A stretch of DNA of 64,000 nt from Sphagnum compactum. Its lineage: Eukaryota. The position numbers were made by a program, and so were the translations under genes. Each line of letters starts with the position of its first letter. Positions within the stretch are counted from its first letter, which is position 1. The notes beneath the pieces were generated by a model. It was not told the origin of the DNA and searched no databases. It saw only the letters and a list, made by a program, of their open reading frames with translations. The DNA is taken from NCBI GenBank assembly GCA_965153455.1, contig OZ234493.1, forward strand, positions 36,880,213-36,944,212, given 5' to 3'. Positions 3,560 to 64,000 of the stretch are shown here, in pieces.

Positions 3560-3755
3560 ATGGTGGGTGTAGAGGACAGGAATGAAGATGTTGCAGAGGA
3601 GGAAGCTTTTGGACCTAGCAGTGTTCCGGATGCAGTAGCTGCAGTTCCAGCTCCATCCGGATGCAACAGCTCCAGTTCCAGCTCCATCTACGGAGGATGG
3701 TGGAGTCATCTTTGTGCTGGAGAAAGCCTCTTTGGAAGCTGCCAAAGTGGGGAAG
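3560..3755 (+). pseudogene. NEP1: Exon 1 of NEP1/EMG1 18S rRNA pseudouridine methyltransferase, frameshifted orphan fragment
   Basis: Ends GGVIFVLEKASLEAAKVGK|gtaaag, matching the plant NEP1 N-terminal motif IFVLEKASLEVAKVGK. A 31-bp imperfect tandem duplication (ccggatgca...gctccat) shifts the frame from ATG 3560. No downstream exons seen. Confidence 0.8.
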
Positions 3756-4012
3756 GTAAAGAAAACAAAAGAAATCCCCTCTCCTTTTCTCTCTGGGGAG
3801 GAGGGTGGGGAGTTTTTCTTTCGAGGGAGTCGTGATCGAGATGTCCACAATGAAGGGGATTATAAAGGTGATGCCATACGGGGACGAGGATTGCGCACTC
3901 CCTTTCGTGGAAGCAAGCGGCGGGGAGCTTTGTGTGCATGTGCTGCAAGTTTTGGGTTGCCTAATCTTTTGCACTATTTCTCTTTTCAATCTCTCTCTCT
4001 CTCTGGTTTCCA

Positions 4013-5623
4013 GTCTTGAAATGTAGTTGGAATTCTTGGGAATGAATTCCAACTCAATACGCTCCTTGAAGAATTCCCATGTGTAGCCATGGGTCTTCCC
4101 TTCTTCTTGCCTCACCGTCCTCCACCATGTGGAGGCATAGCCTTTCAAATAGGATTGGGCAAGTTCCACGGCCGAATGCCGACCAACCTTGGCGGCATGA
4201 AGGTAGTCCTCCATTTCCGCAAACCAAACATCCACAACCTTCCGATCCCGGGCCCCATCAAAGTTCCCGGGCCTAGCGGGCTTGAACCCCACACTTTTGG
4301 ATGAACCTCCCTTGAGGGCCTCAACCAATTCACTAAAATCGGGCCTATTCATTTTGAGTAGGACCTCCAATTGTTCCGGGGTGAAGAGCATCGCATTAGG
4401 TTGCTCCTCTTCATTTTCATGGTCCTCATGGCTATCACGGTCTTGTTCACCTTCGGAATCCTTTTGTTCTTCCCCATTCATGGCTTGGGGTGGAACATCC
4501 GGGTCTTGGGTGGGTTCTTCCACCACGGTCTCTTGGACTATCTTACGGGACTTCTTTGGTGCCATCGGAACTCCCCAATAAGTGGATCGAGCTCACCAGA
4601 GCTCTGATACCAAATGACGCACTCCCAAGTTCCTAGTGGACCCACTTGAGGGTCCAAGTATGTGGCAATGCGGAAGGAGTTGGAACTTGGAGCACACTCC
4701 CGACTTCTAGCACTAGAGGGGGGTGAGAGGGGTGTGCTAGAAGTCCCGAGATAGACTAGGAAGAGTTGACAAGCTTCACTCACTCACACGGGCCTGCATG
4801 GAACCACACAAAGTGGTTAGTGCAAAGTTGGAGCACCCTTGGTGCTAGGACGAGCCATGGGCAACACGGACACACAAGATTCACCACGGCCCGGACTTGG
4901 GGGAAGCCACCACCTTCCCCCTTATAGTATACTTTGCAGCTCTCCATGGAGGCTACATCCAAATGGCTATTTTTCTCGGGACTCCCGAGTGGGAGTCCCG
5001 AAATCGCGCCAAATGGGACTCTCGCGACTTTGGATCCCCATAACATTGCGAGCAAACCTCGGATCGCAATGCGGTCTGAAGCAAAGTTGTAGATCTTGTC
5101 GAAACCTTTTCAACAGTATGTTGCACGTCCTCTGCAGCCTAGTATTTTGGGTCGATTCCTGACTTTTAGTGGTCGGGAGTCAAAACTTGCAGACTCCCGA
5201 GAATTTGACTACCGACCCTTCTTTTGGCCATAACTTGTGTTTCAAATGTCCAAATGAGCAATGCGAGCCCATTTTAGATATCTACGTTTCAAGAGCTTTT
5301 CAATGATATAAAGAACACCACAAGATATTGAGGTTTGACACCTGCAATTGCTCTCTGAAGTTTTGGGAGTCCACCGGGACTCCATCTCCCGAAGTGGGAG
5401 TTGCCTTGGGAGTGTGAGTGTTCACTCCCTCACACTCCCTCACACTTTCTTACACTCCCGGGAGTGTGATGTGACTCCCGGGCTTTCTCTTGCCTTAACT
5501 CCCGGGCTTCCTCTTGGTTTAACTCCCGAGCTCCCTCTTGGTTTAACTTTCGGGCTTCCACTTGGCCCGCAACCTTATAACCCCTTTGCCTTTGGTCTCG
5601 GGCCCAAAGCTAGGGTTGCGACA
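4013..5623 (-). mobile_element. Truncated Ty3/gypsy-like LTR retrotransposon: 5' LTR (4615-5623), tRNA-Met PBS (4601-4612) and 5' part of gag
   Basis: The LTR reads TGTCGCAACCCTAG...GCGTCA on the minus strand, followed by TGGTATCAGAGC. Gag from 4565 reads MAPKKSRK...FDGARDRKVVDVWFAEMEDYL...YASTWW and breaks off near 4013. Confidence 0.9.
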
Positions 5624-18387: not shown

Positions 18388-21300
18388 TCAGTCATTAGGA
18401 AAATTAGAGAAGTATAAAGGCGGGAGGAAACGCCACCTGATGGTGGCGCTATCACTCCCAAAGATGTCCATATGAAACCATTCAGATCTAAAGGCGAGCT
18501 CAATCCTAGCTTGCATAGCAGGGTCATTGACCGGCCGAGGGGCCCTGATGGCCTTCCAGGTGGCCATGCCGACTTCGACGGTGGCCACCCAAGCTTGCGA
18601 GAGGACTTTGTCGATGGAGTAACAGTCGTCGAAGTGCTTACGGCATCTCTCGGACCAAAGGTAGTATAGGATGAAGGTGCGTAAAATGTCAAGCGGCTGC
18701 CTGAGGTAAGTGTATCCTCCTGGGTGGTACGCGTGCAGGCCCGGGGGGTAGGCCCGGGGGGTCTTCCTCGTGCTCGATGGAGGCCTCGCCCAGCAAAGCG
18801 AAGGGCCAGTTGAAGGTGACGTCTTCGGGGGCCTTCCATTCCTCCCACACTCTTTTGAAAGCGCCCCAGGCGCGTTGCGCTGGGGGGCAGTCCAGTAGAC
18901 AGTGTTGGGGGGACTCGGGAACCCCTGAGCTGCAAGTTGCGCAGGTGGGAGAGATTCCCATCACCTATAGCCAGGTGCCAGTTGGGAGGCCCTGATTGAG
19001 GGCTAGCCAAACCAGAGTGCCAACTTTCCTGGGCCGGGAGTTATGCCAAATCCTGGCAACCACTTGGGAAATTGAAGAGTTCCTGAGGTTAAGGTTGTCG
19101 ATGAATGTGATGATTCCCGGGGAGCGCGAGGAGCTCTTCACGTTCTTGTAACCCCTTTTGGCCGTGTATCCAAAGAAAGGGGCGTCGCCCAGGGGGTGTA
19201 CCTCTTTCCAGTGCCACTCCCCTGGGTCCCAGGGGAGGGTTTTGATGATGCCAGACTCAAAGATCCAGTATGTTTTGTTTCTCTGGTTGGCAAGTGGAGG
19301 GTCGTTGGCGACTTTGAGAGACGCTCCATGTCTCTCGCGCGACAGGACCCTGATTATGGATAAATTGTCTGGGCGGATGGTAAGTTTTTGAAAGTTTGTT
19401 GCCCGGATCTGTCCACTGCTAGCTATTCTTCTGAATTCTAGTACTAATACCTTGTCCGCGAGCGCCTCCAGAATGTAGTATACCCATTCCAGGGGGGTAC
19501 CCGAGCTGGGAGTACTTACCCAGTCCCCTGGCTGTGCACAGGGGCTGAAAGAGTCTGGCCTCCAGGGGATGCTCCCAATGATGATGTCTTTGGAGGACCT
19601 GTTGGATGCGTGGACGTGCATTTTCAGGTCTGAGAGGTTCTTCCAGTCCTGAGTATCGCCATTCCAGAAATCCCTGATTCTAGTGTGTCCGGCCCGCGCG
19701 AAGGCGCAACCTTCGCTGTGACCGTTGACTCCAAGGGGTTCTCCCCTTACATTGGTGAGAGATGGATTACTGAAGATAGGTTGTCTCATCAGTTCCGCCA
19801 GATTTGATGGCTCCTTCTTGGCGAGGCCAGGGCGAATGCTCATCCATGCCCCCAGAATGCTCTTCCACATTGAGCAAGGCTCCTTTTTTAGCTTAGGCGC
19901 GGCGAAAATCCAGTGGATGTCTGTAGTGTTGGGCCCTTTCCCGTGAACAGGGAGCCTGGTTTGATCAGCGTGGTGCCGGATCAATTCCTTCCAGGGTTCC
20001 CCTCCGGGTGCAAGACCCCTGACCAGAAGTTTCGCGAGGAGGGCTTCTGATTGCGATTTGGGGTCGATTATGCCCAGTCTGCCTTTAGCAATGGGCAGGA
20101 TGAGGGTGTCCCATTTCACCTTGGCCCGGGTGAACGCGGCTTTCCCCCCCCAAATAAAGTTCCTTACGACTCCGCGCACCTGGCTGCACATGCTGGGATT
20201 AGGGTTCCAGCATGCGGCCAGGTACCAAGTAGAGGCCAGTAGCACCTGGTTGGCGACTAGTACCCTACCCGCGAGGGAGAGGTTGCTGTGGCTCCAGCAT
20301 ATCAGCTTTCCTTTTAGTGCACTCAACATCTTGTTGAAGTTTGCCTCTGTTGGGAGGTGAAATCCGACTTGAACCCCTAGGTAACTGACGCCCTCGCCTC
20401 TGGGGACCCATTTGAGGCCGACTTCCTGCCCCCAATCCCAACTTCTCTCTCTCCTGCTCGCCCATATGGCGGAGGATTTGTTCCAGTTGATCTTGGCCCC
20501 TGAGGCCTTGCAAGACTTCAAGTACACCCTGGGCCCTGTTGAGGTTTTCCTCGTCACCCTTGAGATACAATGCTGTGTCATCGGCAAAGGTTTGGTCCCT
20601 GATTCTGCCCCCCTTGGGCAGTGTCAGGCCCTCAATCCCGTGCCTAGGATCTGCTAGCATGTACCCTAGGATGTCGGTTGCGATTATGAAGAGATAAGGT
20701 GTTAGCGGGCAGCCCTGCCTAACTGATCTGGCAAGCTGAAAGGTTGGTCCTACCACACCGTTGACCTTGATTGCTGAGGACGCCTCCCGATACAAGGTGC
20801 GGACCCATTTTATCCAGGTGTTGCTGAATCCGATGTGGCCCGTGGCGGAGAAAAGAAAATTCCATTCTATTCTGTCGAAGGCCTTCTCAAAGTCTAAGAG
20901 GAGGAGCACCAAGTCCTGGTTGCTCTCCTCGGCCCAGTTCAGAGAGTCTTGGGCCATGAAGACGTTGTCTAGAATACTCCTGCCTTCCACAAATCCTATC
21001 TGGTTCGGTCTGATTATGCTTGGGAGGAAGGTTTGCAGCCTTCCCACGAGCGCCTTGGCAAGAATTTTGTAGATGCATCCCAACAGGGTGATCGGTTTCC
21101 AATTTCCCAACTTGGAGCGATCTCCTGTTTTTGGAATCAGGGAGATTAAACCCCTATTGATGAAAGCCGAAGCCTCGCCTGAGTTCAGCATGGCCGTATA
21201 TGCCATGAGGAATGAAGGTGCCACCTCATTGACGCAAGATTGGAAGAATTCGATGGGAATTCTATCCTGTCCGGGTGCTTTGTTTTTGGGCAGTGCAAGA

Positions 21301-22755
21301 ATCGCCTTGACGACCTCCTCTAGCGTGAGGCTCTGGGTGAGGGAGGCATTAGTTTCCGCCGAGACTCTCGCCGGGACATTGTCCCAGCAGGAGGCTTGGG
21401 CTTCCTGGGTCCCAGGGAGGTGGGCTTCCGAGGTATAGAGTTTGGTGTAGAAATCGGTGATGTGATTGGTGAGGTCAGTGTGCCTTTTGATCAGCCCGTT
21501 GTCGGTGACCAGTTCCCTCATCAGGGTCTTCTTTTGCCCTGCTCGGTGAAAGTCAAAGAAGGTTTTGGAACAGGTGTCGCCATACCTGAACCAGTTCGAA
21601 GAGGAGAGGTGTTGGTTGTGCGGCACCTGATTTTGAAAAATTTCCTGCCAGCTTGGCTTGTGAGTCGGACAGGACGCCCCTCACTTCCTCGTTGGTCGGG
21701 TTGTTTTGAAGCTGAGCTTCCGCGAGTTGAACTCTTTTTGTGTTCATTCTAATCGTGGCTCCTCTGAGTCGCTTCTTTACCTTGGCTAGGCGGTTGTTGC
21801 AGGCCATTACCTTGCCGATGGCCGCTTCCAGCCAGAGAGTCCAATCCTGGTCGTTGGAAGGGGTCGGGAGGTCCCCTGACCATGCTTGGAGCAATTCCGC
21901 TTTGGCCTCCGCGTCTTCCAGGAGGGAGGTGTCGAAGTAGTAAGATGGATTGACTGGGTCAGTTGCCTGACCCCAAATTGAAATGAGAAGTAGGGAGTGA
22001 TCTGAAAATTTTCCAATGGAGGCAGGAGATTCGATCCTTCCTCCTCTTGATTCCAAGCCTTGCGAGATCATGTATTTGTCGATTCTGGAGACGGCTGCGC
22101 CGGATCCCGATCTCCCATTGTCAAAAGTGTACGCCTTTTTTGACATCTTTCGGAAGCTGTCTGAGACCCAAGCGTCGGACAATCCATATTGGATCGTCAT
22201 TTGATGCTAGGAGGCTGCCTCCCTCCTATGCATTCTTCTATAGCCGGCTAGACCCCCGCAGGGGATTTCCACCATATGATTAAAATCTCCCCCTAAGATG
22301 GTGTGGTCTGAATTGCATTCAGCGCTACTTATGGCTTTCCATAAATGAGCTCTTTCTCTAGAGGTTCGGGCTGCGTAGATGTTGATCACGGTTAGCGTGA
22401 CTCCGTCTGTCGCTTGGAGTTTGACAAATTGCGCTCGACCTTCTACGAGGATCCCATTGTCGACCACCAGGGGAGCTGTGGTTCTGTTTAGAAGGATGGC
22501 AATGCCAGCGCTAGTTCTCTGTGAGGTTCCCATGGGGATCCTTGGATTCCAGAAGGAAGCTCCCTTCCAAAACTCGATTCCTTTTCCGGTGCTGTCTAAG
22601 CCTTATTTTCCCAGGTGGTGTTCCTGGATGAGGAGGATTTGGGGGGGGGAAGGGAGAGAGGCTAACCAGAGCTTTATCGCCTTCTGCTTTGGCGAATTGG
22701 TCCCCAAGCCTCTCGCGTTGAGGGACGCCAGGGTAAGGGTCTTGTCAAGCATTTC
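18388..22755 (-). pseudogene. LINE ORF2: APE endonuclease, reverse transcriptase and zf-RVT, disrupted
   Basis: EN motifs LNARGL, QEHH, NIYA, GGDFN, SRID, FSDH. RT motifs DFEKAFD, RQGCPL, FADD. Zinc finger CATC...ESPQHCLLDC. Split over several ORFs and frames. Confidence 0.92.
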
Positions 22756-22997
22756 CTTGTTGACCCTGGGCGGCTGGTGAGCCGATCGATCCCAATCCAT
22801 CAAATTCGTTTTGAAGAGAGCTTGCCAGGTCCTGAGGCGCCAGCGCTAAGAGGTCGAGCTTTATGTATCTTTTCTTTTTTCTGGCCGCTTGTGGAGATGC
22901 CAGTAGGCTTGCTGACGTGCTTTTGCACGTTTGGCGATCCGTGCTTGCGGGACCGGTCTTCAGCAAGAGGCTGTGTGCCGGGCCCGAGAAGACAACA

Positions 22998-25900
22998 TCA
23001 TTGTTCATGCTGGGCATGGATTCGGGTGTCCTCTAGTGTAGATTTTTCTTCTTTTGCGCACTGATAGCACTGAGGCCAGTGTTGATGTGAGCCAGAATCG
23101 TGCATTCCTAGCCTCCCTTGACATGATCTTCTTGCCAGCTCCATTCCAAGGCGAGGCGCCCCTTGAGACTCAGGCTGAATCTGAGAATCTTTCCCTCGAG
23201 CTCTGCCTCGACGTTCCTGGTTAAGTCCGCGAGAGCGGACACAGGGGTCCATTCCTCTTCAGGTGTCCCTAAGCACCTGAGGTGCAGCGGGAGGCTTGGC
23301 GAGTCATTGCTCTTAACATTGACCAGGATCTCCTTCTGGTTGTTTCTCTCTCTGGACAGCACCGGCCAGACTATTGCTCTGGCGTGTTCTTGTCCCGGGG
23401 GCACCTGGATGCCTAGAGAAGTGAAAAAGGAACTGTGAACCTCGGAGCGCATTCTCTTTCTTCCACTCCCTGGAGTAAGGTCTTGTATTGAGGCGGGAGC
23501 TGGAGTAAGGTCTTGTATTGAGGCAGGAGCTGGAGACTGAGGCAGAGTTTGCCTTGGCAAGACAATCCTGGAGGATTGCTTCTTGCTTGCCTGGAAAGTC
23601 CAAATCTCTCCCAGTTTCCCTTGAGCGTCCTTGGGATCCTCAGCTTCTGGGCTGAGAGCTTCCAGGGCCGTGAATGGATTTGCGTTGGCAGCCGAGAGAT
23701 AAGTCTGATGAGGAGTTGCCATCTAGTAGCCAAAATTGGGTTGTTCTGCTTGAGGATGGGTGATTGCTGAACGAGTTTCAACCCTTGTACTGGGCCTGGC
23801 CTGGTTGAAACCTGATGGACTTGTCGGATCCGCCATATCCTGGTCGGCTTCCGAGGTCCCTGAAGTAGCCTTCAGGCATCGATTCCGTGGTGATGCCTCT
23901 GCGTTGGGCAGAATTGTGGAGGTACTGGCGATGTTTAGCTGAACGGGGTGATCCGAATGCTTGCTATCTTCCTTTCGATGCTGGATCGTCTCGGTTTGCG
24001 CTTGATTCCTCCTTGCATTTTGGGTTCGGAGTTGTTTGCTGGCCTGGGCTTGGATCGGTTGAGGAATTCCTCCCCCCCCTGGCTCCTTTCCTTCTGGTCC
24101 CCTGATGCTTGTGGGGGGGTATGCTGGCACCCCCTCCCACGGTTTGCTCCTATTGATCCTGCAGGCCCGTGCATGGTGGCCGAACCTCCTGCACTTTCTG
24201 TACTGGTTTGGCAAGCCGGAATACAAGATTCTTTGTGCCACAGTGTCGTTGGGCTCTGCTCCTTCCGCCATAGACGGAATTCTAATGTATCCGGGTAGCT
24301 TGGAAATATCCCTGAGCTCGATGGTGATCATGGGCCCCGCTGGCCTTTTGATGTACGAGTCTACCGCTTCTATCTCCAGGACTTCCCTGATTTTGCTCGC
24401 CATGATAGTCAGGGCCCTCGTGTTCCTGAACTGCTCGTGCAGATCGGGGAATTGAACCTTGATCGCGTGTGTGAGTTGAGCTTCCGCCCCCTGCAAGCTT
24501 GAGTCGAAATTTGGAATGTAGCGAGAGAAGGAGAGGCCCAGGCCGCTCCATTCGACTGCTGCCAGTCGTCTGGTGGCCTTGGCCCCTTCCTCATTCTCGA
24601 AGAGTACTTCGAAGTATTCTCTTGTGAGGAGGGATACTGAGTTGAAAGGGGCCGGGAGATGGAGCTTGAGGCAGTCGAGCAACGCTTTGAATGTTGCTCT
24701 GCCTCCAAGCGTTCTACCGATAACAGTTCGTCTAGCTTTCTTCGCCGCGCTTTCTTGCATCTGTCGCAACCCTAGCCTTTGGCTTGCGACCAAGGCAAGG
24801 GGGTTGTGAGGTTGCGGGCCTAGTAGTAGACCCGGGAGGCACATCACATGCTCCCGGGAGTGCAAGGAGTGCAAAGAGTCCAGAGAGTGTGAGGGAGTGA
24901 ACCCTCACACTCCCAAGTGAACTCCCACGTTGGGAGTTGGTGAGAGTTGGAGTCCCGGAGGGACTCCCGAAACTTCAGAGAGCGTTTTGAGGGGTCAAAA
25001 CTCCATGGCTTGTTTTGCACTTTATATCAATGGAAAGCTCTTGAAGCGTACATATCTAAAATGGGCTCGCATTGCTCATTTGGACATCTGAAACACAAGT
25101 TATGGCCAAAAGAAGGATCGGGAGTCGAATTCCCGGGAGTCTGCCAGTTTTGACTCCCGACCACTAAAAGTCGGGAATCGACCCGAAATACTAGGCTGCA
25201 GAGGACGTGCCACATATCGTTGGAAAGCTCTCGACGAGAGCTACAACTTTGCTTCAGACCGCATCGCGATCCGAGGTCTGCTCGCAAAGTTATGGGGCTC
25301 CAAAGTCGCGGGAGTCCCATTTGGCGCGATTTCGGGACTCCCACGCGGGAGTCCCGGGAAAAATAGCCATTTGGATGTAGCCTCCGTGGAGAGTCACAGA
25401 GTATACTATAAGGGGGGAAGTGGTTGGCTTCCCCAAGGGGGAAGGTGCTGGCTTCCCCACCAAAGGGAGTGAGGTGGTGGCTTACTCCCGAGCCCGGAGT
25501 GTGTGTGTGTTCAAAGTGAGTCCGAGTTCACCCGTGGCTTGTCCCAACACCAAAAAGGATTCAACATGAGTCCCAAGGGGGAAGGTGATGGCTTCCCCAA
25601 GGTCCGGGCCGTGGCTCTTCCTAGCACCAAAGGTGCTCCAACTTTGGACTAACCACTTGGAGTGGTTAATGGAGGGTCCGTGTGAGCGAGTCAAGCTTGT
25701 CAACTCTTCCTAGTCCCATCCCGGAGCTCCAACACACCCTTCTACCCCTCAAGTGTTGTGAGCTAGGGAGCGGCTCCAAGTTCCAACCGCTTCCGCATTG
25801 CCGCATACTTGGACCCTCGAGTGGGTCCACAAGGAACTTGGGAGCGCGTCAGCATCACTACCACTAAGTCTGTTGGAAAATCCGCCTCTATTTCCATGCT

Positions 25901-27189: not shown

Positions 27190-30100
27190 TGACGCGCTCC
27201 CAAGTTCCTTGTGGACCCACTCGAGGGTCCAAGTATGCGGCAATGCGGAAGCGGTTGGAACTTGGAGCCGCTCCCTAGCTCACAACACTTGAGGGGTAGA
27301 AGGGTGTGTTGGAGCTCCGGGATGGGACTAGGAAGAGTTGACAAGCTTGACTCGCTCACACGGACCCTCCATTAACCACTCCAAGTGGTTAGTCCAAAGT
27401 TGGAGCACCTTTGGTGCTAGGAAGAGCCACGGCCCGGACCTTGGGGAAGCCATCACCTTCCCCCTTGGGACTCATGTTGAATCCTTTTTGGTGTTGGGAC
27501 AAGCCACGGGTGAACTCGGACTCACTTTGAACACACACACACTCCGGGCTCGGGAGTAAGCCACCACCTCACTCCCTTTGGTGGGGAAGCCAGCACCTTC
27601 CCCCTTGGGGAAGCCACCCACTTCCCCCCTTATAGTATACTCTGTGACTCTCCACGGAGGCTACATCCAAATGGCTATTTTTCCCGGGACTCCCGAGTGG
27701 GAGTCCCGAAATCGCGCCAAATGGGACTCTCGCGACTTTGGAGCCCCATAACTTTGCGAGCAGACCTCGGATCGCAATGCGGTCTGCAGCAAAGTTGTAG
27801 ATCTCGTCGAGACCTTTCCAACGGTATGTCGCACGTCCTCTGCAGCCCAGTATTTCGGGTCGATTCCCGACTTTTAGTGGTCGGGAGTCAAAACTGGACG
27901 ACTCCCGGGAATTCGACTCCCGGGCCTTCTTTTGGCCATAACTTGTGCTTCAGATGTCCAAATGAGCAATGCGAGCCCATTTTGGACATCTACACTTCAA
28001 GAGCTTTCCATTGATATAAAGAGCGAAACAAGCCATGGAGTTTTGACCCCTCAAAACGCTCTTTGAAGTTTTGGGAGTCCTTTTGGGACTCCACTCTCAC
28101 CAACTCCCAACATGGGAGTTCACTTGGGAGTGTGAGGGTTCACTCCCTCACACTCTCTGGACTCTTTGCACTCCTTGCACTCCCGGGAGCATGTGATGTG
28201 CCTCCCGGGTCTACTACTAGGCCCGCAACCTCACAACCCCCTTGCCTTGGTCGCAAGCCAAAGGCTAGGGTTGCGACACTCTCCCCCACTAGAAGAAGAG
28301 GTCAATGTCCTCATTGACACTTAGAGTTTTCTCTCTCTCACGGTTGCACTCCCGGGAGCATGCGATGTGACTCCCGGGTCTACTATTAGGCTTGCACCTT
28401 GTAACCCCCTTGCCTTGGCCTTGAGCCAAGGCTAGGGTTGCGACACTCTCCCTCACTAAAAGAAGAGGTCAATGTCCTCATTGACACTTAGGGTTTTCAC
28501 CCACACAATTGCACTTGCTTTCTTTTGGATCTTTGGCCATCACTTGCCGACATCTTGCGGCTTGGCCCTTGTCTCAAGCTAACTCGGGCATCCCCAAGCT
28601 TCCAACATTCTCTTGACAAGTCGAGGAAGGTTTCTCTTAAACCCCCTCCCTCACTCGGGAGGAACTATTTCATCCTTCCCCTCATGAGTCATCATTTGCC
28701 GACACCTTGCGGCTTGGACCTTGTCTCAAGCTAACTTAGGCGTCCCCAAGCTTCCAACACTCTCTTGATAAGTCCGGGAGGGTTTCTCTTAAACCCCCCC
28801 CCTCACTCGGGAGGAACTCTTTCATCCTTTCCTTCATGAGGAACTCGAGCCGACACCTTGCGGCTCGGACCTTGTCTCAAGCTAACTCGGGCGTCCCCCA
28901 AGCTTCCAACACTCTCTTGACAAGTCCAAGAGGGTCTCTCTTAGACCCCCCCCTCATTTGGGAGGAACTATTTCATCCTTTCCCTCATGAGGAACTCAAG
29001 TCAAGTCTACTCTTGACTCAAGCTACTTGACATGACTCCTTTCCCCCATCTCGCGCCTCGGTCACAACAACCAAGCCTTCACGAAAAGGTATGCTTATCA
29101 AGGTACGAGGAGCAACGTTTAGGCTTTGCAAAGGCCTAAGTCCCAAGCTACACGATTATAGTACGTGAACGGGGTCATGACTCCCCGCGTTGGCCGCCAC
29201 TACCAACCAACCCTTCGGGATGCACTTTGGGCATGTGCACGTCCCCGTAAGCTCACCTTGCTTACCTCCTCTTTTGGGACCAAGATTTCTCCTAGCCTCT
29301 AAGTGGAGTCCGATTTTGATTTGGGCGTACGCGAGAGAGTTCCATTTGTCCATGCCACTTGACAACCCCTTTTTATTGTGGTTTTTTTTTTTTTTTTTTT
29401 TTTGTTTGTTTGTTTGTTTGAGATGCAATCTCTATGTTTGTGATGCAATCTCTTGTTTGTGATGCAATCTCTTGGAAGCTCAAAAACTTAGCCTTTATTT
29501 CACTTACAACTTGATGTGGTACATTTGTGTACCTTTCCGCCCCCTAAAAGAAAGGTGATGTCCTCATCACGGTCTATATTTCTTTTGCTTCTTCAAGTTG
29601 TGTGACCATGAGCACTTCCTCACTTGCATCACTTGGGGGTTGCCCAACCCAAGTTGAACTTCCTTTTGGAACTTAGTTTTCCAACATCAAGTGGATTGTG
29701 GTCCCACCCACACTAGGCACTTCATGTGCCTTCACTCGCGCGATCCCATTCTTGGATGGGATCCTAACTAGCCTATTGTGCCCTTCCATGAGCACATTGT
29801 CACGGGTGATGAATTCCATTCCCCCTAAGGTGGAAACTAAAAGTCCACCTTGCCTCTCCAATTTCCCAATTGGAGGGGCACATCTTTGGCTCACAACTTG
29901 GTGGGATGGGGAATCCCATCCGCAAAGTGCACCTCCATGGGTGCCTTGAGCTCCTCCAAGGGGAGCTCCATTCTTTTCGCACTTTCTTGGTTATGAAGTT
30001 GTGAGAAGTCCCTTAGAAACCCCACTCCCCGATTTGGGTTTGGGGCAATCCTTAGAGTAATGCCCCACTTCATTACAATTGAAGCACACTCCTTTGGGTT

Positions 30101-31801
30101 TCCCACTAGCATTTCCCTTGGGTTGGCTCCCTTTGAAAGGAGCCCCTTTCTTCACAAAATTTCCTTTGGGTTTAAAATCCGAGCCTTGGAATTGTTTGGG
30201 CTTTTCCCCCTTTGAGGTTTCTTGGCCTCGGCTCCATTCCCCTTCAATTAGGATTGGGCAAGTTCCACGGCTGAGTGCTGACCAACCTTGGCGGCATGGA
30301 GGTAATCTTCCATTTCCGCAAGCCAAGCATCCACAACCTTTCGGTCCCGGGCCCCATCAAAGTTCCCGGGCCTAGCGGGCTTGAACTCCACACCTTTGGA
30401 TGATCCTCCCTTGAGGGCCGCACTAATTCACCGAAATCGAGCCTATTCATCTTGAGTAGGACCTCCAATTGTTCCGGGGTGAAGAGCACCGCATTTGATT
30501 GCTCCTCTTCATTTTCATGGTCCTCATGGCTATCACGGTCTTCCTCACCTTCGGAAACATTTTGTTCATCCCCCATTATGGCTTGGGGTGGAACATCCAA
30601 CTCTTGGGTGGGTTCTTCCACCACGGTCTCTTGGACTACCTTGTGGGACTTCTTTGGTGCCATCGGAACTCCCCAATAAGTGGATCGAGCTCACCGGAGC
30701 TCTGATACCAAGTGACGCGCTCCCAAGTTCCTTGTGGACCCACTCGAGGGTCCAAGTATGCGGCAATGCGGAAGCGGTTGGAACTTGGAGCCGCTCCCTA
30801 GCTCACAACACTTGAGGGGTAGAAGGGTGTGTTGGAGCTCCGGGATGGGACTAGGAAGAGTTGACAAGCTTGACTCGCTCACACGGACCCTCCATTAACC
30901 ACTCCAAGTGGTTAGTCCAAAGTTGGAGCACCTTTGGTGCTAGGAAGAGCCACGGCCCGGACCTTGGGGAAGCCATCACCTTCCCCCTTGGGACTCATGT
31001 TGAATCCTTTTTGGTGTTGGGACAAGCCACGGGTGAACTCGGACTCACTTTGAACACACACACACTCCGGGCTCGGGAGTAAGCCACCACCTCACTCCCT
31101 TTGGTGGGGAAGCCAGCACCTTCCCCCTTGGGGAAGCCAACCACTTCCCCCCTTATAGTATACTCTGTGACTCTCCACGGAGGCTACATCCAAATGGCTA
31201 TTTTTCCCGGGACTCCCGAGTGGGAGTCCCGAAATCGCGCCAAATGGGACTCTCGCGACTTTGGAGCCCCATAACTTTGCGAGCAGACCTCGGATCGCAA
31301 TGCGGTCTGCAGCAAAGTTGTAGATCTCGTCGAGACCTTTCCAACGGTATGTCGCACGTCCTCTGCAGCCCAGTATTTCGGGTCGATTCCCGACTTTTAG
31401 TGGTCGGGAGTCAAAACTGGACGACTCCCGGGAATTCGACTCCCGGGCCTTCTTTTGGCCATAACTTGTGTTTCAGATGTCCAAATGAGCAATGCGAGCC
31501 CATTTTGGACATCTACACTTCAAGAGCTTTCCATTGATATAAAGAGCGAAACAAGCCATGGAGTTTTGACCCCTCAAAACGCTCTCTGAAGTTTTGGGAG
31601 TCCTTTTGGGACTCCACTCTCACCAACTCCCAACATGGGAGTTCACTTGGGAGTGTGAGGGTTCACTCCCTCACACTCTCTGGACTCTTTGCACTCCTTG
31701 CACTCCCGGGAGCATGTGATGTGCCTCCCGGGTCTACTACTAGGCCCGCAACCTCACAACCCCCTTGCCTTGGTCGCAAGCCAAAGGCTAGGGTTGCGAC
31801 A
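27190..31801 (-). mobile_element. Complete non-autonomous Ty3/gypsy-like LTR retrotransposon (4612 bp) with TSD GAGAG
   Basis: 5' LTR 30713-31801 and 3' LTR 27190-28278 (both 1089 bp, near-identical). PBS-Met 30699-30710, PPT 28279-28290. Internally a deleted gag (CFNCNEVGHYSKDC knuckle) and a protease remnant (MEVHFADG), with no RT or integrase. Confidence 0.96.
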
Positions 31802-58265: not shown

Positions 58266-59862
58266 TGAGGCTGATTTCAACTTTTGCACCATGGGTGATT
58301 TGTTGAACATCGCCCTCAACTCCTATTGTAAAACTAAAGTTTGAATGAATTCATTAGTTTAAATAATTAATTAAAAAATAATGAATTCACTGGTCTAATG
58401 AATTGCACCCACATCTTGTAATAATTAGAAACAAACACAAAGCTTTTGTAACTTGATACCAGTATAGATGCTGGTTTGGTCAAGGCATAATATTTGTACC
58501 TGGTACACCAGATACAAATATTATCAGTGTTTTTTCTTTTCTCATTTTTTTTCTCATTTTTGCGGTTTGTGACTTTGTCAAATTTTTTCTATTTATTGGG
58601 CATTTTTTTCTCGAATTCACACTATTAAAACGAATTTCCCCAATTTCTTCAAAAAACGTTTAGCCATAGCGCGAAAATTCACCCCAAAAAATCACTTTTC
58701 TACACAGAATTTCTTTTGTTTTTCGACTCCAAATTTATTTGTTATGACTGTCCATGTAATTTTTCCTTCTCCCCCCCAAGCTGCTCCAATCATAGCCACT
58801 GGCCAGGGCGAACCAGCACCTACACTGGTACACTCACCGTCTTGAGGAAGGCGTCTTAGAGGCTGTCTTTATCGATTCAGAGACTCTGATTTTGTCTAAG
58901 AGCATCTCCATCGCAAGACTGTAAAGAACTCCTTTACGTTATACTAGAACAGTGTTTAATCATCACTGTCCCCACCCACAACCGTCATAAAATTCCCATT
59001 AAACACTCAAAGACCATTTATGTCTTTACATCTGGACCACTAATAGTCACTGCATGTCCAAATTCATAGTAGAAAAAAGCTTTTAAAGGGGTTAAAATAG
59101 CCACTGCAAAATTGAAAACAATACCGGAGCGGAGGAGGAGTTACGCTATCCTGCTGCAAGATTTAATGAAAAGGGGTGTTTGCAGGTGTAGGGTGGCCGG
59201 TTCACCCAAGGCCCAATTAATCATCCATTGCCTGCAGCATGAGCTCTGGCAGAACGCTTCAATAATGCACTGGGTGAAATCAGCCAACAGCAGGAAACGT
59301 GTGGAGCAATCTTTTTTGGGTGAGTTTTGAGATATAGCCCAAGTGGCTATCATCGGTAGGAAGATTTAGTCAGATTTGGCTATGAGCTAAATATCGCATT
59401 AGAAAATCTTCAATATGTTTCTCTTATTTTTGGCTACCTACTTGAAAATCATGTGTGGATATCTGACGATTTTTCTTTGGATTTGGTTGAATTTTGGCTC
59501 ATGTGTGAAAATCTCAAAAAGCATTTGATTTTAGCACTTTCTAAATTTATGACTTAGCTTTTTTTCGGCGACAGTTTATTGGTAAAAGAAAGGTCGGTGT
59601 GTGGATGTGAACAAAAGTCATGATGTTAATAATGGAGGAGGCCAGAGGGAAAACGTAGAAAGCGCGTTTGACAAGTCTCAAGCTGACATGAGTAGAAAAT
59701 AGAGACACGTGTTCCAGAAAAGAAAGTAATGAATTGTTCAGTGGCCAAGAAATCGGTAAAGCGCGTATGCTAGAATCTGAAGAGTCACGGCAAAATCCTT
59801 CTAGAAGTTTCTACATTTTGAAGAAGAGGTCCTGAAGAGGAAAGGGGTTGGTGTTCTTTGGA

Positions 59863-60187
59863 GAGATCTAGTGGAAATATCAGCTTGCGAGAATCTGTGA
59901 TGTGAGTGACACCCATCATACCCTGTGTATACTATTGGGATGGCAGAGGATTTCTAGCAGGTTTTATGAGAGCTTCTTCTTCTGTGAGAAAAGTCGAAAA
60001 AGGGATAAGAAGAAAAGAGTGTGAGAATTCCAGGGAGTTCGTGAAGAGAAAAGCAGTTGATGTTTGCTGGCGAGATCTAGTGGAAAGATCAGCTTAGCTT
60101 GCGGGGATCCGTGATGTGAGGGACACCCATCATACCCTGTGTATGCTATTGGGATGGCAAAGGATTTGTAGCAGGTTTTATGAGAGC
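59863..60187. repeat. ~110-bp direct repeat (59863-59972 and 60072-60187) upstream of the NLR
   Basis: gagatctagtggaaa...gacacccatcataccctgtgtat...gcaggttttatgagagc occurs twice. Confidence 0.85.
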
Positions 60188-61269
60188 AAAAGGTTAAGAG
60201 AAAAACATTTATGAGAGCAGTGAGCAAAAGGAATTTCAGTTGTGCGAAATATGGTAAAGCGAAAAGGAGTTGATCTTCCACAATGGTCTTCAAAAAGAAA
60301 GAGAGATGTTGTGCGGACCCCTGCTGCGATTAAGAGACCTTTGGTCCCAGCTGAAAATGCTCCTTCAAGCTCTAGATGGCACAACAATGTGGTGCTTCTT
60401 CTTAATCTTATGATGAGCTTTCTTTGCACAGTTTTTTCTTGGGCTTTCCCAAGTTACACATTGAAGTTTGATTTTTCTTTGCTTTTAAAAAAAAATTTGT
60501 TTGGGTGTTGACGAATGTCCTTGACCCTTACAACCATGATAGTTTATTGTCCTCACAAAGCATCAGGATAAGGAGGTCTAGTTCAGATTTGAACTCCCCA
60601 ACCAACAACTTCACAACCATACCTTTTAGTCACTAGGGTACTTGAATGTCCCCAATCATTTACAAGTTTCCTTGTCATACATTTTTACTTTGCTTACTTT
60701 CTAGTATGGTTGTTTAGATAAAAACAATATGAAATAATGTTTAAAACAATATGAAATGGAGTCATCATATTAGCCTCTTACATTAGGTCGGTGACTCATT
60801 TGCTAACAAGTAGAATTGGTGAAATGACAATTTGTCAAAAATTGGTATTGACTAAGAATATTTTGAACTTGTCAAGATTGGAACTTTCATTATAGATTAT
60901 GAGTTAAGTTCAATGTGTAGTCTTGATTCAACAACCTAAAGCAAATTATTGAAATCCGGAGCATTAACCTTTATTGTTTGGCATGCGTTCCACCTACTAT
61001 GTAACAACGTTTGCTTGTTGAACTATGTTTTCAAACTTTGAGGTCTATGACAAGTGAATGATCTTCACTTGTTAGTCATACAAGCTAGATTTGGTATTCT
61101 TTGATTCATCTATTATTGTCATCTTGTTAAACTTAATCTTTTCGACTAATTATTGCCTTTGTTTAACTACTGTAATTTGTATATTGCATTTCTCTTATTT
61201 CATGTACAGTCTAATAATTTCCAAGAAAGGTATGAAGAATTGTGTTGACTCATTTCATTTTCTTTGCAG

Positions 61270-64000
61270 AAATATCTAGTGCATGATTTAAATCCCACCT
61301 GCAATTCCAATAATCCAAACTTCACCATCATTTTTTTTCATGGGATTGTTTTTGGCACGAATGATGCGTGGAAGGAAACATGGACAACACGTCCCACCAA
61401 TGATAGAGAAGAGTGCATATGTTGGCCAGAAAAGTGGCTACCTGAAGACTTGAACAACAATGTTCGAATTTTATCATTGTCCTATGATTCTCACATTGTG
61501 GCAAGTGTTCACGATGATGTGACTGAAATTGGCAAAAACCTCATCCAAAGTTTGATTGTAAATTCAAGGTGTGAAAATCTCCTCTATTTATAAACACATT
61601 AATTACTATTCCTTGTGTACATTGAAGCTAATTTTTTACATCTTTAGAATTTCTTACATGTTTTGCACGAGTTAATTGTTCATGTGTATTAGTACTGCGA
61701 TACACACCAACAAGTTTCAATTTTCTTAAATTGTTAGATTCATGTAGGAGAACATAAAATGGGGCTTGAATGAAAATGTTCTTGTTTGAGGATAATAGCA
61801 AAGTCTATGTTCATATTATAAATTCATGGTAGAACTAGTTTGGTTTTTATGGCAATTTTTAGTTCGTGTTTTTTGAAGTTTTATCTTTGCTAATGCAATT
61901 GAATTAAATTAAATTAATACATGTGTAGATAATTTTCATCCATTTCATTGCAAAAAAACTTATTTAAAAACATATATACATATACAATTTTAAATTTTCA
62001 ACTATATTTCCAACGGAACAAATAGAAGATGAGTTGTACATTAACAAAAGAATGTACACACTTACATACTTGTGCATAATAATTGTTTTACCAAAACATG
62101 GTTGTCACATTTTCTAGGTAGATTAAAGGAATCAATAAATGAAAAATGACGTAGGACAAATAAATCAATTATGAACTTATGGCTTAAGTCATGTGTGAAT
62201 TGGAAAATTGCCCCAAGTATAATAGGATGAATTTGTACATGTTAATACAATGTTGATATGGGATTTTGGTGCATTGTTGAATATTTTGTAGTTATCAATC
62301 CCTTTGGAATGGACCAGTGGCATTAATTGCTTATAGTTTTGGAGGTCTTGTACTCAAAAGCTTGGTGGTTGAAGCTCGCAAACGTGTATATCAAAGGCTC
62401 ACAAATGGTTTGGATGATGAAATACAAAAATGTTGTAAAACATTTTTGAACAATGTCAAAGGTGTAGTATTTTATGGTGTACCACATTCTGGTGCTGACA
62501 ATTTATTAAAATATTTCGAATGGCAATGTCAACAAATCAAGACGTCCAACAAACATTTTGCCCAACTTGGTTTTGCAAGAAATTTAGAACCTTTCAATAA
62601 ACAAATGCAGTCCCTTTCAAAGGAGTTTAAAGATGCCGTTCATGAAGACTTCAACATTTATGAATTCGGTGAAGGATTACCAATCAACAAGAATTGGGTA
62701 AAATTTTCATTGTGTCACATTGAAAATTATCCAACTTGGTTCATTAATTAAACATTTTTTGTATTGTCAAAACTTGTGTGGGATGATGTATTCAATACTT
62801 CTAAATATGTCAATGTGGTGAATGGGTCATGTGTTTTATGAACTTTGTTTCATGAATTACTATCGATGGAAATGAAATGTGATTGATTTCAAACATTAGG
62901 AAATAGGTTTAAATTTTCCTTTCATCAAATCAATTCCACATAAATATTTTAAAGGAAATCATAACATCATTAAAACATGTAAGATTCCTAAGATTAAAAA
63001 CCAATAACTTTGTGATGTATTTATATAAGTTGTTTGCCAAAGGGTTGAAGGAAATTGCTTGTATAAAATATTCCATTATTATTCAAACATCAATAGTTAT
63101 TAAGTTATTGTTTCCACTACCATTTGGTTTATAAGTTAAATGATAAGTGAACAAACAAATCAATGAGTTTCATTAACTTAATTTTTTGCACGTGCAGGGA
63201 ATTTTAGTGCCATATGTCTCAGCTACTCAGTTGTCAAACAACAACCATTACAAAATTGAGGATGCTAATCACTTGACAATTTGCAAGCCACTAAGCAAGG
63301 ATCATTCAAGTTATTCTTTATTGTTAAATTGTTTAAAAATATATATGCAGGTAAAAACATCAAATCTAATTTTTCTGATTTCATATATGTTCATGTAATT
63401 TGAAACACATTAGGTCATAGCACACTTGATGTGTATCACATATGCAATATCATATATATTGATTATCAAATAAGAAATATAGCATAATGACCTATATTTT
63501 GTGAATTTTGACAGAAAAATATAGAGCTTCCGCCTTTGCCATGTCATGAGGTGGCGTTGATTGACAAAGCAAAAGACATAAACATTTTGTTACAAAAGGA
63601 ATCTATTGTTGGTTTGGTTGGAATGGGTGGGATTGGGAAAACCACTTTGTGCAAAAAATTCTATCATTTGTTCCACAACCAATATGAGAAATCTAGTTTT
63701 TTGGAGAACGTGAATTCAAAGGACAATATCAATGATGTCATAAAACAACTCTTGCATGATTTATGTGACAAAAATTTATGCAAAGATGAAAATGTGAATA
63801 AAGAAAACCTCGACAAAATTAAGCAATGTATGATATCGAAAAAAGTGTTAGTGGTGGTGGATAATGTTGGTAAGGCGGAATACCTTACACTTTTGCCAAT
63901 TCCCATTGATAAAGCTGCCAAAAATCTAGCTTCTAAAAGCAAAGTACTTGTGAATTGTCGAAATTGGCAAATTCTAAAATCTCATGTAAATGAGGATGGA
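61270..64000 (+). CDS. alpha/beta-hydrolase-NB-ARC (HNL-type NLR) immune receptor; exons 61270-61568, 62292-62697, 63198-63350 and 63515->64000; start exon uncertain (candidate ATG 60251), 3' end outside the window
   Basis: Four GT-AG-joined exons stay in frame with no stops. Hydrolase motifs IIFFHG, WPEKWLPEDL..VRILSLSYD, AYSFGGLVLK, GVVFYGVPHSG and DANHLTICKP. NB-ARC motifs GMGGIGKTT, FLENV, KVLVVVDNV and SKVLVNCRN. Confidence 0.9.

Follow-up and report, generated by a model that had tools for sequence, protein, structure and literature searches.

The class of plant immune receptor in which a hydrolase precedes the NB-ARC and leucine-rich repeat (LRR) regions was named HNL in 2012 (PMC3352924), and the hydrolase-NLRs of Sphagnum were listed by Chia 2024 (PMC11218826), with a minor Sphagnum hydrolase clade placed inside the CC group in the relevant passages. 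The same passages describe two Marchantia hydrolase domains that cause an HR-like death in N. benthamiana, and describe no catalytic mutant of them. A 2023 review (PMC10952240) proposed that lipids are hydrolysed or bound and, in the part concerned, called the biochemistry unknown, and a 2026 review (PMC12856790) goes no further than listing the class where it treats it. Catalytic tests of bryophyte hydrolase NLRs were looked for in titles and abstract openings and none was found there. It is apparent from the relevant parts of these sources that the class is already known, having been published for Sphagnum, in which it is reported to be abundant, and that the lipase idea has been stated (PMC10952240).

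Receptors of a similar build are also found in fungi, where SesB-like NLRs and internally conserved repeats have been described (Dyrka 2014, PMC4986451; 10.1101/2022.03.16.484565), and a passage of PMC4986451 links SesB, SERAC1 and the bryophyte hydrolase domain. The fungal SesB-like NLRs and the gene described here both have a predicted lipase head and near-identical C-terminal repeats, which in the fungi vary in number and carry signs of shuffling; however, the fungal repeats treated in PMC4986451 are WD, ANK or TPR repeats with positive selection reported, whereas here they are 24-aa LRRs with a pN/pS below 1. The LRR array works like the NLRs of high internal conservation (Dyrka 2014), but is not filed with them because its repeat type is LRR and not WD, ANK or TPR. 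Within plants, melon Vat also has near-perfect repeats in its LRR region, the number of which varies and for which unequal crossing-over has been proposed, although the relevant part of PMC8012345 gives Vat 1-7 repeats, each 65 aa long and set in an ordinary LRR, whereas here nearly the whole LRR consists of 88 single 24-aa units and belongs to a receptor of the hydrolase type. In rice Xa1, another plant NLR, the LRR region likewise carries near-perfect tandem repeats (PMC7748011, in the passage concerned).

The locus described here lies within the 382-Mb genome of Sphagnum compactum, and its 5' part falls in the window, by which is meant the whole 64,000-nt stretch analysed (OZ234493.1 36,880,213-36,944,212). 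It almost certainly is an intact Sphagnum hydrolase-NB-ARC-LRR immune receptor (HNL/Hyd-NLR); the preliminary description had taken it for an apparently intact hydrolase-NB-ARC receptor. Set against the relevant passages on the class (PMC3352924, PMC11218826, PMC10952240), it has the same hydrolase-NB-ARC-LRR order and, on sequence likeness, a TNL-like NB-ARC, and has in common with them a phase-0 intron between hydrolase and NB-ARC, plus an intron behind the NB-ARC; its phase-0 intron within the hydrolase may correspond to the one of Marchantia genes. It differs in having two extra 5' introns, a basic leader and 88 homogenised LRR units, and those passages hold neither a triad assignment nor an LRR count. 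The closest named homologue is S. fallax BDL97_01G004100 (P0001), whose hydrolase region shows 90% identity over 300 residues, with 89% over exon 3, and which is annotated as a full receptor; it has ~20 LRR units against 88-89 here and starts MGNS as opposed to MVKR. What sets this copy apart is the LRR exon, with its 88 homogenised units, among them an 11-unit block in three exact copies, and the decayed units that follow.

A six-exon gene and its splicing

The gene is made up of six exons on the + strand that, when conceptually joined, give 2,910 codons with a single terminal stop. Its features are as follows, positions being those of the window unless the contig is named.

60251..60388, + strand: exon 1, aa 1-46; ATG and basic leader with two basic clusters (KRK...KRKR), without Gly2
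61270..61568, + strand: exon 2, aa 47-146; N-terminal part of the hydrolase, including FFHG
61339-61341, + strand: His70 codon in FFHG, exon 2
62292..62697, + strand: exon 3, aa 146-281; holds the nucleophile elbow, the cap helices and the candidate acid
62335-62337, + strand: Ser161 codon, nucleophile position in AYSFGG (motif 62329-62346)
62671-62673, + strand: Glu273 codon in FGEG, candidate triad acid, exon 3
63198..63350, + strand: exon 4, aa 282-332; carries His306
63270-63272, + strand: His306 codon in DANHLTICKP (motif 63261-63290)
63515..64000, + strand: in-window part of exon 5; NB-ARC, Pfam E 2.3e-16
63620-63643, + strand: P-loop GMGGIGKT, exon 5
63698-63712, + strand: RNBS-A FLENV, exon 5
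63851-63868, + strand: Walker B VVVDNV, exon 5
OZ234493.1:36944788, + strand: end of exon 5, past GLPL and IHD, outside the window
OZ234493.1:36944975-36951649, + strand: exon 6, the LRR exon of 2,224 codons, outside the window

Exons 1-5 are 138, 299, 406, 153 and 1062 nt long, the intron between exons 5 and 6 is 186 nt, and all ten splice sites are GT or AG. The introns that separate hydrolase from NB-ARC (63350/63515) and NB-ARC from LRR are both of phase 0, as is a further one within the hydrolase (62697/63198). The four exons of the region previously described (exons 2-4 and the in-window part of exon 5) are bordered by GT..AG and, once joined, read through 448 codons without meeting a stop, compared with 28 and 38 stops in the two alternative frames, which together with the Pfam match bears out the claim that a hydrolase is spliced in frame to an NB-ARC. 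When the sequence was extended beyond the window the frame continued through GLPL and the IHD motif of the ARC2 region into the LRR exon, with no stop or frameshift before LRR 88, so that the receptor appears as intact as had been supposed. Exon 1, for which a search had been recommended, lies upstream of the region previously described, where it had been missed, and agrees with the N-termini of the homologues P0001, P0004 and P0006. The NB-ARC exon is open at the 3' window edge, and an ORF track listing closed frames only would for that reason leave it out. Telomere-type TTTAGGG repeats end the contig ~9.6 kb beyond the stop.

Evidence for the splicing comes from RNA contigs of four runs (three recorded as RNA, one guessed), matched at 90% likeness. 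In contigs of relatives the GT..AG joint 60388>61270 and the joints 62697>63198 and 63350>63515, the last of which had been named as a check on the model, are found in all four runs, and the NB-ARC/LRR intron is joined in three of the four. The joint 61568>62292 is absent among the 15 of 32 joints listed; this intron is crossed by the continuous proteins P0092 and P0094, from contigs of 1,416 and 1,418 nt that are too short for the introns. The contigs carry fixed differences from the locus and come from relatives or paralogues, thus what they support is the gene model, and they do not speak for expression of this particular copy.

Exon 1 has an alternative donor 3 nt downstream, and the corresponding joint 60391>61270 occurs in contigs of relatives in two of the four runs. 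A membrane-anchored isoform produced by reading through intron 1, which encodes a hydrophobic 19-mer (mean 2.03), was considered and rejected, as there is a stop at 60511 and the in-frame donors here are weak. The two basic clusters of the leader are ~10 residues apart. An MG start, a pattern which we take to be of the myristoylation type in the N-termini of the homologues, is seen in 26 of the 116 homologues; this copy starts MVKR, and both membrane and nuclear targeting are possible roles for its leader.

On sequence likeness the NB-ARC is TNL-like, its closest solved sequences being Roq1 (E 5e-40) and 7crb (E 1e-21), with CNLs behind at 1e-16, in keeping with the TIR-type RNBS-A (FLENV) that had been noticed. 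Roq1 and the 7crb NADase are TNL resistosome proteins with a TIR NADase head where this gene has an alpha/beta-hydrolase, and in such resistosomes the enzyme head is switched on by oligomerisation. The motif set is complete, with P-loop, RNBS-A, kinase-2 (VVVDNV), GLPL and an MHD-like motif (IHD). Walker B reads DNV, with Asn for the second Asp; the same reading is seen in 9 of the 36 loci in which the motif was found and in 14 of 74 matches from the database. The MHD position is IHD in this gene, whereas 30 of 37 loci have IHE there. P0001 shares both the Walker B Asn and the IHD. That second Asp is tied to ATP hydrolysis, and the change to Asn may alter the ATP switch.

The hydrolase domain and its candidate catalytic residues

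The N-terminal domain is, according to structural modelling of a relative, an alpha/beta-hydrolase fold. Taken alone, the hydrolase exon gives a weak Pfam match (DUF676, E 0.053), but DUF676 is found at E<=0.01 in 23 of 26 aligned relatives. The fold was modelled on P0017, which is 80% identical to P0001 in the hydrolase domain, using 65 alignment rows, and this model (pLDDT 85.9) replaced an earlier one on 26 Sphagnum-centred rows in which the His loop had a pLDDT below 50. In the P0017 model S138 sits at a strand-turn-helix elbow (strand 132-137, helix 140-156), the Glu equivalent to Glu273 ends the second strand after the nucleophile, and H284 follows the last core strand (276-279) in a block of pLDDT 97. 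This order of Ser, acid and His is the one expected of the alpha/beta-hydrolase fold. The best fold matches overall are a phospholipase, esterases and lipases (Z 16-17, identity 8-18%), headed by PlaB (6zth, Z 17.3), BlEst2 (6wpx, 16.6) and a feruloyl esterase (7ebo, 16.6), these three with an rmsd of 3.4-3.9 over ~220 residues and 11-18% identity; as the matches are tied and of low identity they do not name a substrate. Against solved sequences, a Sphagnum-only profile had no match at E<=1, and a deeper profile found BlEst2 at E 1.7e-4.

Conservation of the candidate residues was followed in three sets of sequences. The nearest are 116 homologues of exon 3, from a database search covering proteins of up to 2,000 residues, and all those with an organism name are Sphagnum proteins. 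Ser161 is kept in 111 of the 115 with a residue at that position, Glu273 in 112 of 113 and His306 in 96 of 102. Among 30 loci of this genome both Ser161 and Glu273 are kept in all 30, and His306 in 25 of the 26 in which the motif was found. The most distant set derives from a profile search with 4,310 matches, the best 150 of which gave 149 new proteins and, from these, 61 full-length domains at 21-52% identity. In these 61 domains the nucleophile position is Ser in 46, Cys in 11, Gly in three and Lys in one; Glu273 is kept in 55 and His306 in 59, and in the FFHG motif, presumably the oxyanion-hole loop, H70 is kept in 59 and G71 in 56. A Cys at the nucleophile position can still act as the nucleophile. 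Ten proteins of the distant set were looked up, being four from Calypogeia, one from Marchantia paleacea, one from Sphagnum, one fungal cluster and three without a name, and the profile matches include a fungal hydrolase cluster (P0252, E 1.7e-25). Liverwort and fungal relatives alike keep the candidate triad residues and the HG loop. Elsewhere the hydrolase domain is fused to kinase, caspase, lectin and DnaJ domains.

The preliminary description had the catalytic Ser and His retained, which holds, since AYSFGG and DANHLTICKP are where it placed them and are conserved in the homologues. It had also expected an Asp to complete the triad, and here it has to be corrected. No Asp is conserved at the usual lipase acid position, and the NDGAV stretch of BlEst2, which we take to be its lipase acid motif, aligns to non-acidic positions; judged by conservation and by the model, the triad acid is most likely Glu273. 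The other positions considered were set aside: at position 305 this copy has Asn where 52 of the 61 distant domains have Asp, at position 287 it has Tyr where 48 of 61 have Glu, and its Asp at position 303 falls below the conservation cut in the distant set. The triad of PlaB, as given in part of a preprint, is Ser-Asp-His, compared with the candidate Ser-Glu-His here.

Selection on the domain was estimated on a tree of 21 stop-free copies out of 30 from this genome, on which Ser161 and Glu273 are unchanged. Core segments have a dN/dS of 0.22-0.39 and codons 203-211, nine in all, one of 0.60, while the cap helices stand at 0.71-0.73, where the intervals take in 1; positive selection on the cap found no support on this tree.

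The LRR array and its paralogues

Exon 6 consists, after one divergent repeat, of 88 regular 72-nt units in a single frame, each encoding a 24-aa LRR, and it is followed by a frame shift, a stop and a tail of 13 units with eight stops and two frame shifts. The 88 open units have no stop. Of these, 64 are distinct, and the distinct units have no indel and a mean identity of 88% in DNA and 79% in protein. Exact recent copies make up 22 of the 88, and units 30-62 are an 11-unit block of 792 nt present three times, exact over 1,613 nt, a triplication that could be either a recent expansion or an assembly error. With the extra block copies removed 66 units are left, in which 6.4% of 1,653 pairs of 120-aa blocks are at least 85% identical (best 93%, mean 80%), thus an identity of 85% or more over 100 aa or more is reached by repeats both through the exact triplication and without the extra copies.

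Variation between units peaks at positions 7, 9, 11, 12 and 15, with an entropy of 1.3-2.1 bits compared with less than 0.9 elsewhere, and these correspond to the x residues of LxxLxLxxC that are exposed. The pN/pS of the strand positions is 0.31/0.41 compared with 0.044/0.078 elsewhere, although pairwise counts of this kind are weak under recombination. Positive selection at the LRR surface codons finds no support, with pN/pS below 1, and therefore the pattern is better read as a small codon alphabet being mixed. All four gametes are found at 28 of 36 informative site pairs among the units, and there are 45 distinct surface codes. Exact sharing of a 72-nt unit with other genes was looked for in 39 loci and found in none. 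Papers describing giant homogenised arrays of LRRs in Sphagnum were sought by title and abstract opening, and none was found there; supplements may hold LRR annotations.

This gene is one of many. The NB-ARC DNA has 130 candidate matches in the genome, the 40 of these that were scored being 89-100% identical, and the hydrolase exon has at least 150 matches (all 150 scored, of 246 candidates), the weaker of which may be more distant hydrolase genes. Decay is common in the family, with a stop in the hydrolase exons of nine of 30 copies and an NB-ARC exon that is not open in 11 of 40. Of the arrays of the 39 nearest paralogues, 38 have lesions or a decayed tail and many break early, with 0-58 units before the first lesion (median 20, hand count), so that, of the 40 copies examined, none has a longer open array than the 88 units here. 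Exact duplicate units occur in 17 of the 39 paralogue arrays, with 1-10 in each (hand count).

Proposed mechanism and alternative readings

It is possible to propose how such a receptor would work. The LRR solenoid would bind a microbial effector or an altered host protein, and the ligand on the LRR face would release the NB-ARC, allowing ADP to be swapped for ATP. The receptor would then oligomerise, probably as a TNL-like tetramer, and the clustered hydrolase heads would cleave an ester, most likely of a membrane glycerolipid, by means of Ser161, Glu273 and His306, with a lipid signal or membrane damage leading on to cell death. The whole of this mechanism, from LRR sensing through oligomerisation to Ser-Glu-His ester hydrolysis, with catalysis included, is on balance slightly favoured. 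In its favour are the single open frame, the conserved triad candidates, the modelled fold and the cell death caused by the two Marchantia domains; against it stand the missing lipase Asp, the 15 of 61 distant domains without Ser at the nucleophile position, the Walker B Asn and lack of Gly2 in this copy, and the many broken copies in the family. The array itself would grow, shrink and mix by unequal crossing-over and gene conversion between the 72-nt units, a turnover that the telomere-adjacent position may help, and units behind the first lesion would decay.

Another reading of the hydrolase fold, thought to be rather unlikely, is that it signals without turnover, either by binding a small molecule or a partner, as the EDS1-family lipase-like proteins do, or by acting as a bait for effectors, with the triad kept for binding. 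The faster change of the cap helices (dN/dS ~0.7, with intervals reaching 1) and the Gly or Lys at the nucleophile position of four of the 61 distant domains are what might be seen if this were so, binding and EDS1-like roles are named as options in a passage of PMC10952240, and there are preprints dealing with the triad of EDS1 and with DM3, a hydrolase connected to autoimmunity through NLRs. However, the commonest replacement of the Ser is Cys (11 of 15), liverwort and fungal relatives keep all three candidate triad residues as well as the HG loop, and the fusions to kinase, caspase, lectin and DnaJ domains are as expected of a portable effector module, all of which count against it.

Doubt may also attach to this copy rather than to the family. 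That the family works as described and this copy is a young, over-expanded paralogue, silent or non-functional and yet to gain a stop, is unlikely, although 38 of 39 paralogue arrays have lesions, the copy has the Walker B change from Asp to Asn and lacks Gly2, 22 of its 88 units are exact recent copies, and no read or contig from the four runs, matched at 90% likeness, is proven to come from it. Yet its 64 distinct units are without a stop or indel next to a tail that has many, all ten splice sites are GT or AG, and BDL97_01G004100, which shares the Walker B Asn and the IHD, carries the annotation of a full receptor. It is more unlikely still that the assembly has inflated the LRR count and the 11-unit block is present once and not three times, which would give ~66 regular units and leave the rest of the reading unchanged; the block of 792 nt is exact over 1,613 nt and its count is that of the assembly, but exact duplicate units are also found in 17 of the 39 paralogue arrays, and 66 units would still exceed the 58 of the longest paralogue examined. 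The most complete form of the preferred reading, in which this copy is a functional NLR with a solenoid of ~89 LRRs built from one 72-nt cassette, a reshuffled surface alphabet and a Ser-Glu-His lipase switched by a TNL-like resistosome, is put forward tentatively and has to be regarded as doubtful.

As one gene of many in its genome, this locus is of value as an example and does not amount to a new system. It names three residues for mutation, Ser161, Glu273 and His306, with the expected Asp corrected to Glu, and its 88-unit array is a good test of the limit on the length of an NLR sensor and of the speed of reshuffling. If the reading is true, peat mosses would have a fungal-style, fast-recombining receptor repertoire built on LRRs, and its enzyme output would be one that plant immunity had not been seen to use before.

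Repeats around the HNL gene and the contig end

Several probable pieces of retroelements lie in the window upstream of the hydrolase-NB-ARC-LRR (HNL) gene, and these are as follows:

18965-24904, minus strand: long frames like those of a LINE-type retroelement, with endonuclease-like and reverse-transcriptase-like stretches as judged by eye
3615-4592 and 30244-30690, minus strand: two gag-like frames
25027-25527, 27514-28014 and 31037-31537, plus strand: three near-identical stretches of 500 nt

The LINE-like frames are broken up across several reading frames and sit within a G+C-rich block, with the two gag-like frames and the three 500-nt stretches probably being pieces of LTR retrotransposons. 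On the other side of the gene the contig is closed by telomere repeats some 9.6 kb past the HNL stop (OZ234493.1 near 36,961,244; the end of stretch L007 and L008), with no frame longer than 156 codons found between the stop and these repeats.

Paralogues and other carriers of the hydrolase

Within the genome itself the MHD motif takes a variant form, reading IHE in 30 of the 37 paralogue loci (L041-L079) where the motif was found. The hydrolase domain is not limited to the HNL arrangement: among the homologous proteins it is also joined to protein kinase, caspase, B-lectin, Armadillo, DnaJ or Roc domains, or is found as tandem copies (P0057, P0067, P0134, P0149, P0153, P0169, P0206, P0209, P0226 and P0249). 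The S. magellanicum protein CY35_18G078000 (P0003) has a hydrolase 89% identical to that of the copy under study, followed by LRR blocks that recur about four times, and NB-ARC is absent from its Pfam list.

The 5' end of the gene

Two features of the window flank exon 1:

59826-59973 and 60035-60187: a segment of about 150 nt present as two tandem copies, 82-92% alike, at a spacing of about 210
60389-60445: hydrophobic 19-mer encoded by the 5' end of intron 1

The duplication lies directly upstream of exon 1, a location that is likely to be 5' UTR or promoter. At the start codon (60245-60260) about five codons of the relatives, including Gly2, are absent from this copy, which shares a short MVKR start with several homologues; the longer form is seen in loose ends of RNA contigs from relatives. 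In seven homologues (P0027, P0030, P0039, P0042, P0043, P0045 and P0108) the leader is duplicated and the 19-mer lies inside the predicted protein, where it could act as a membrane anchor.
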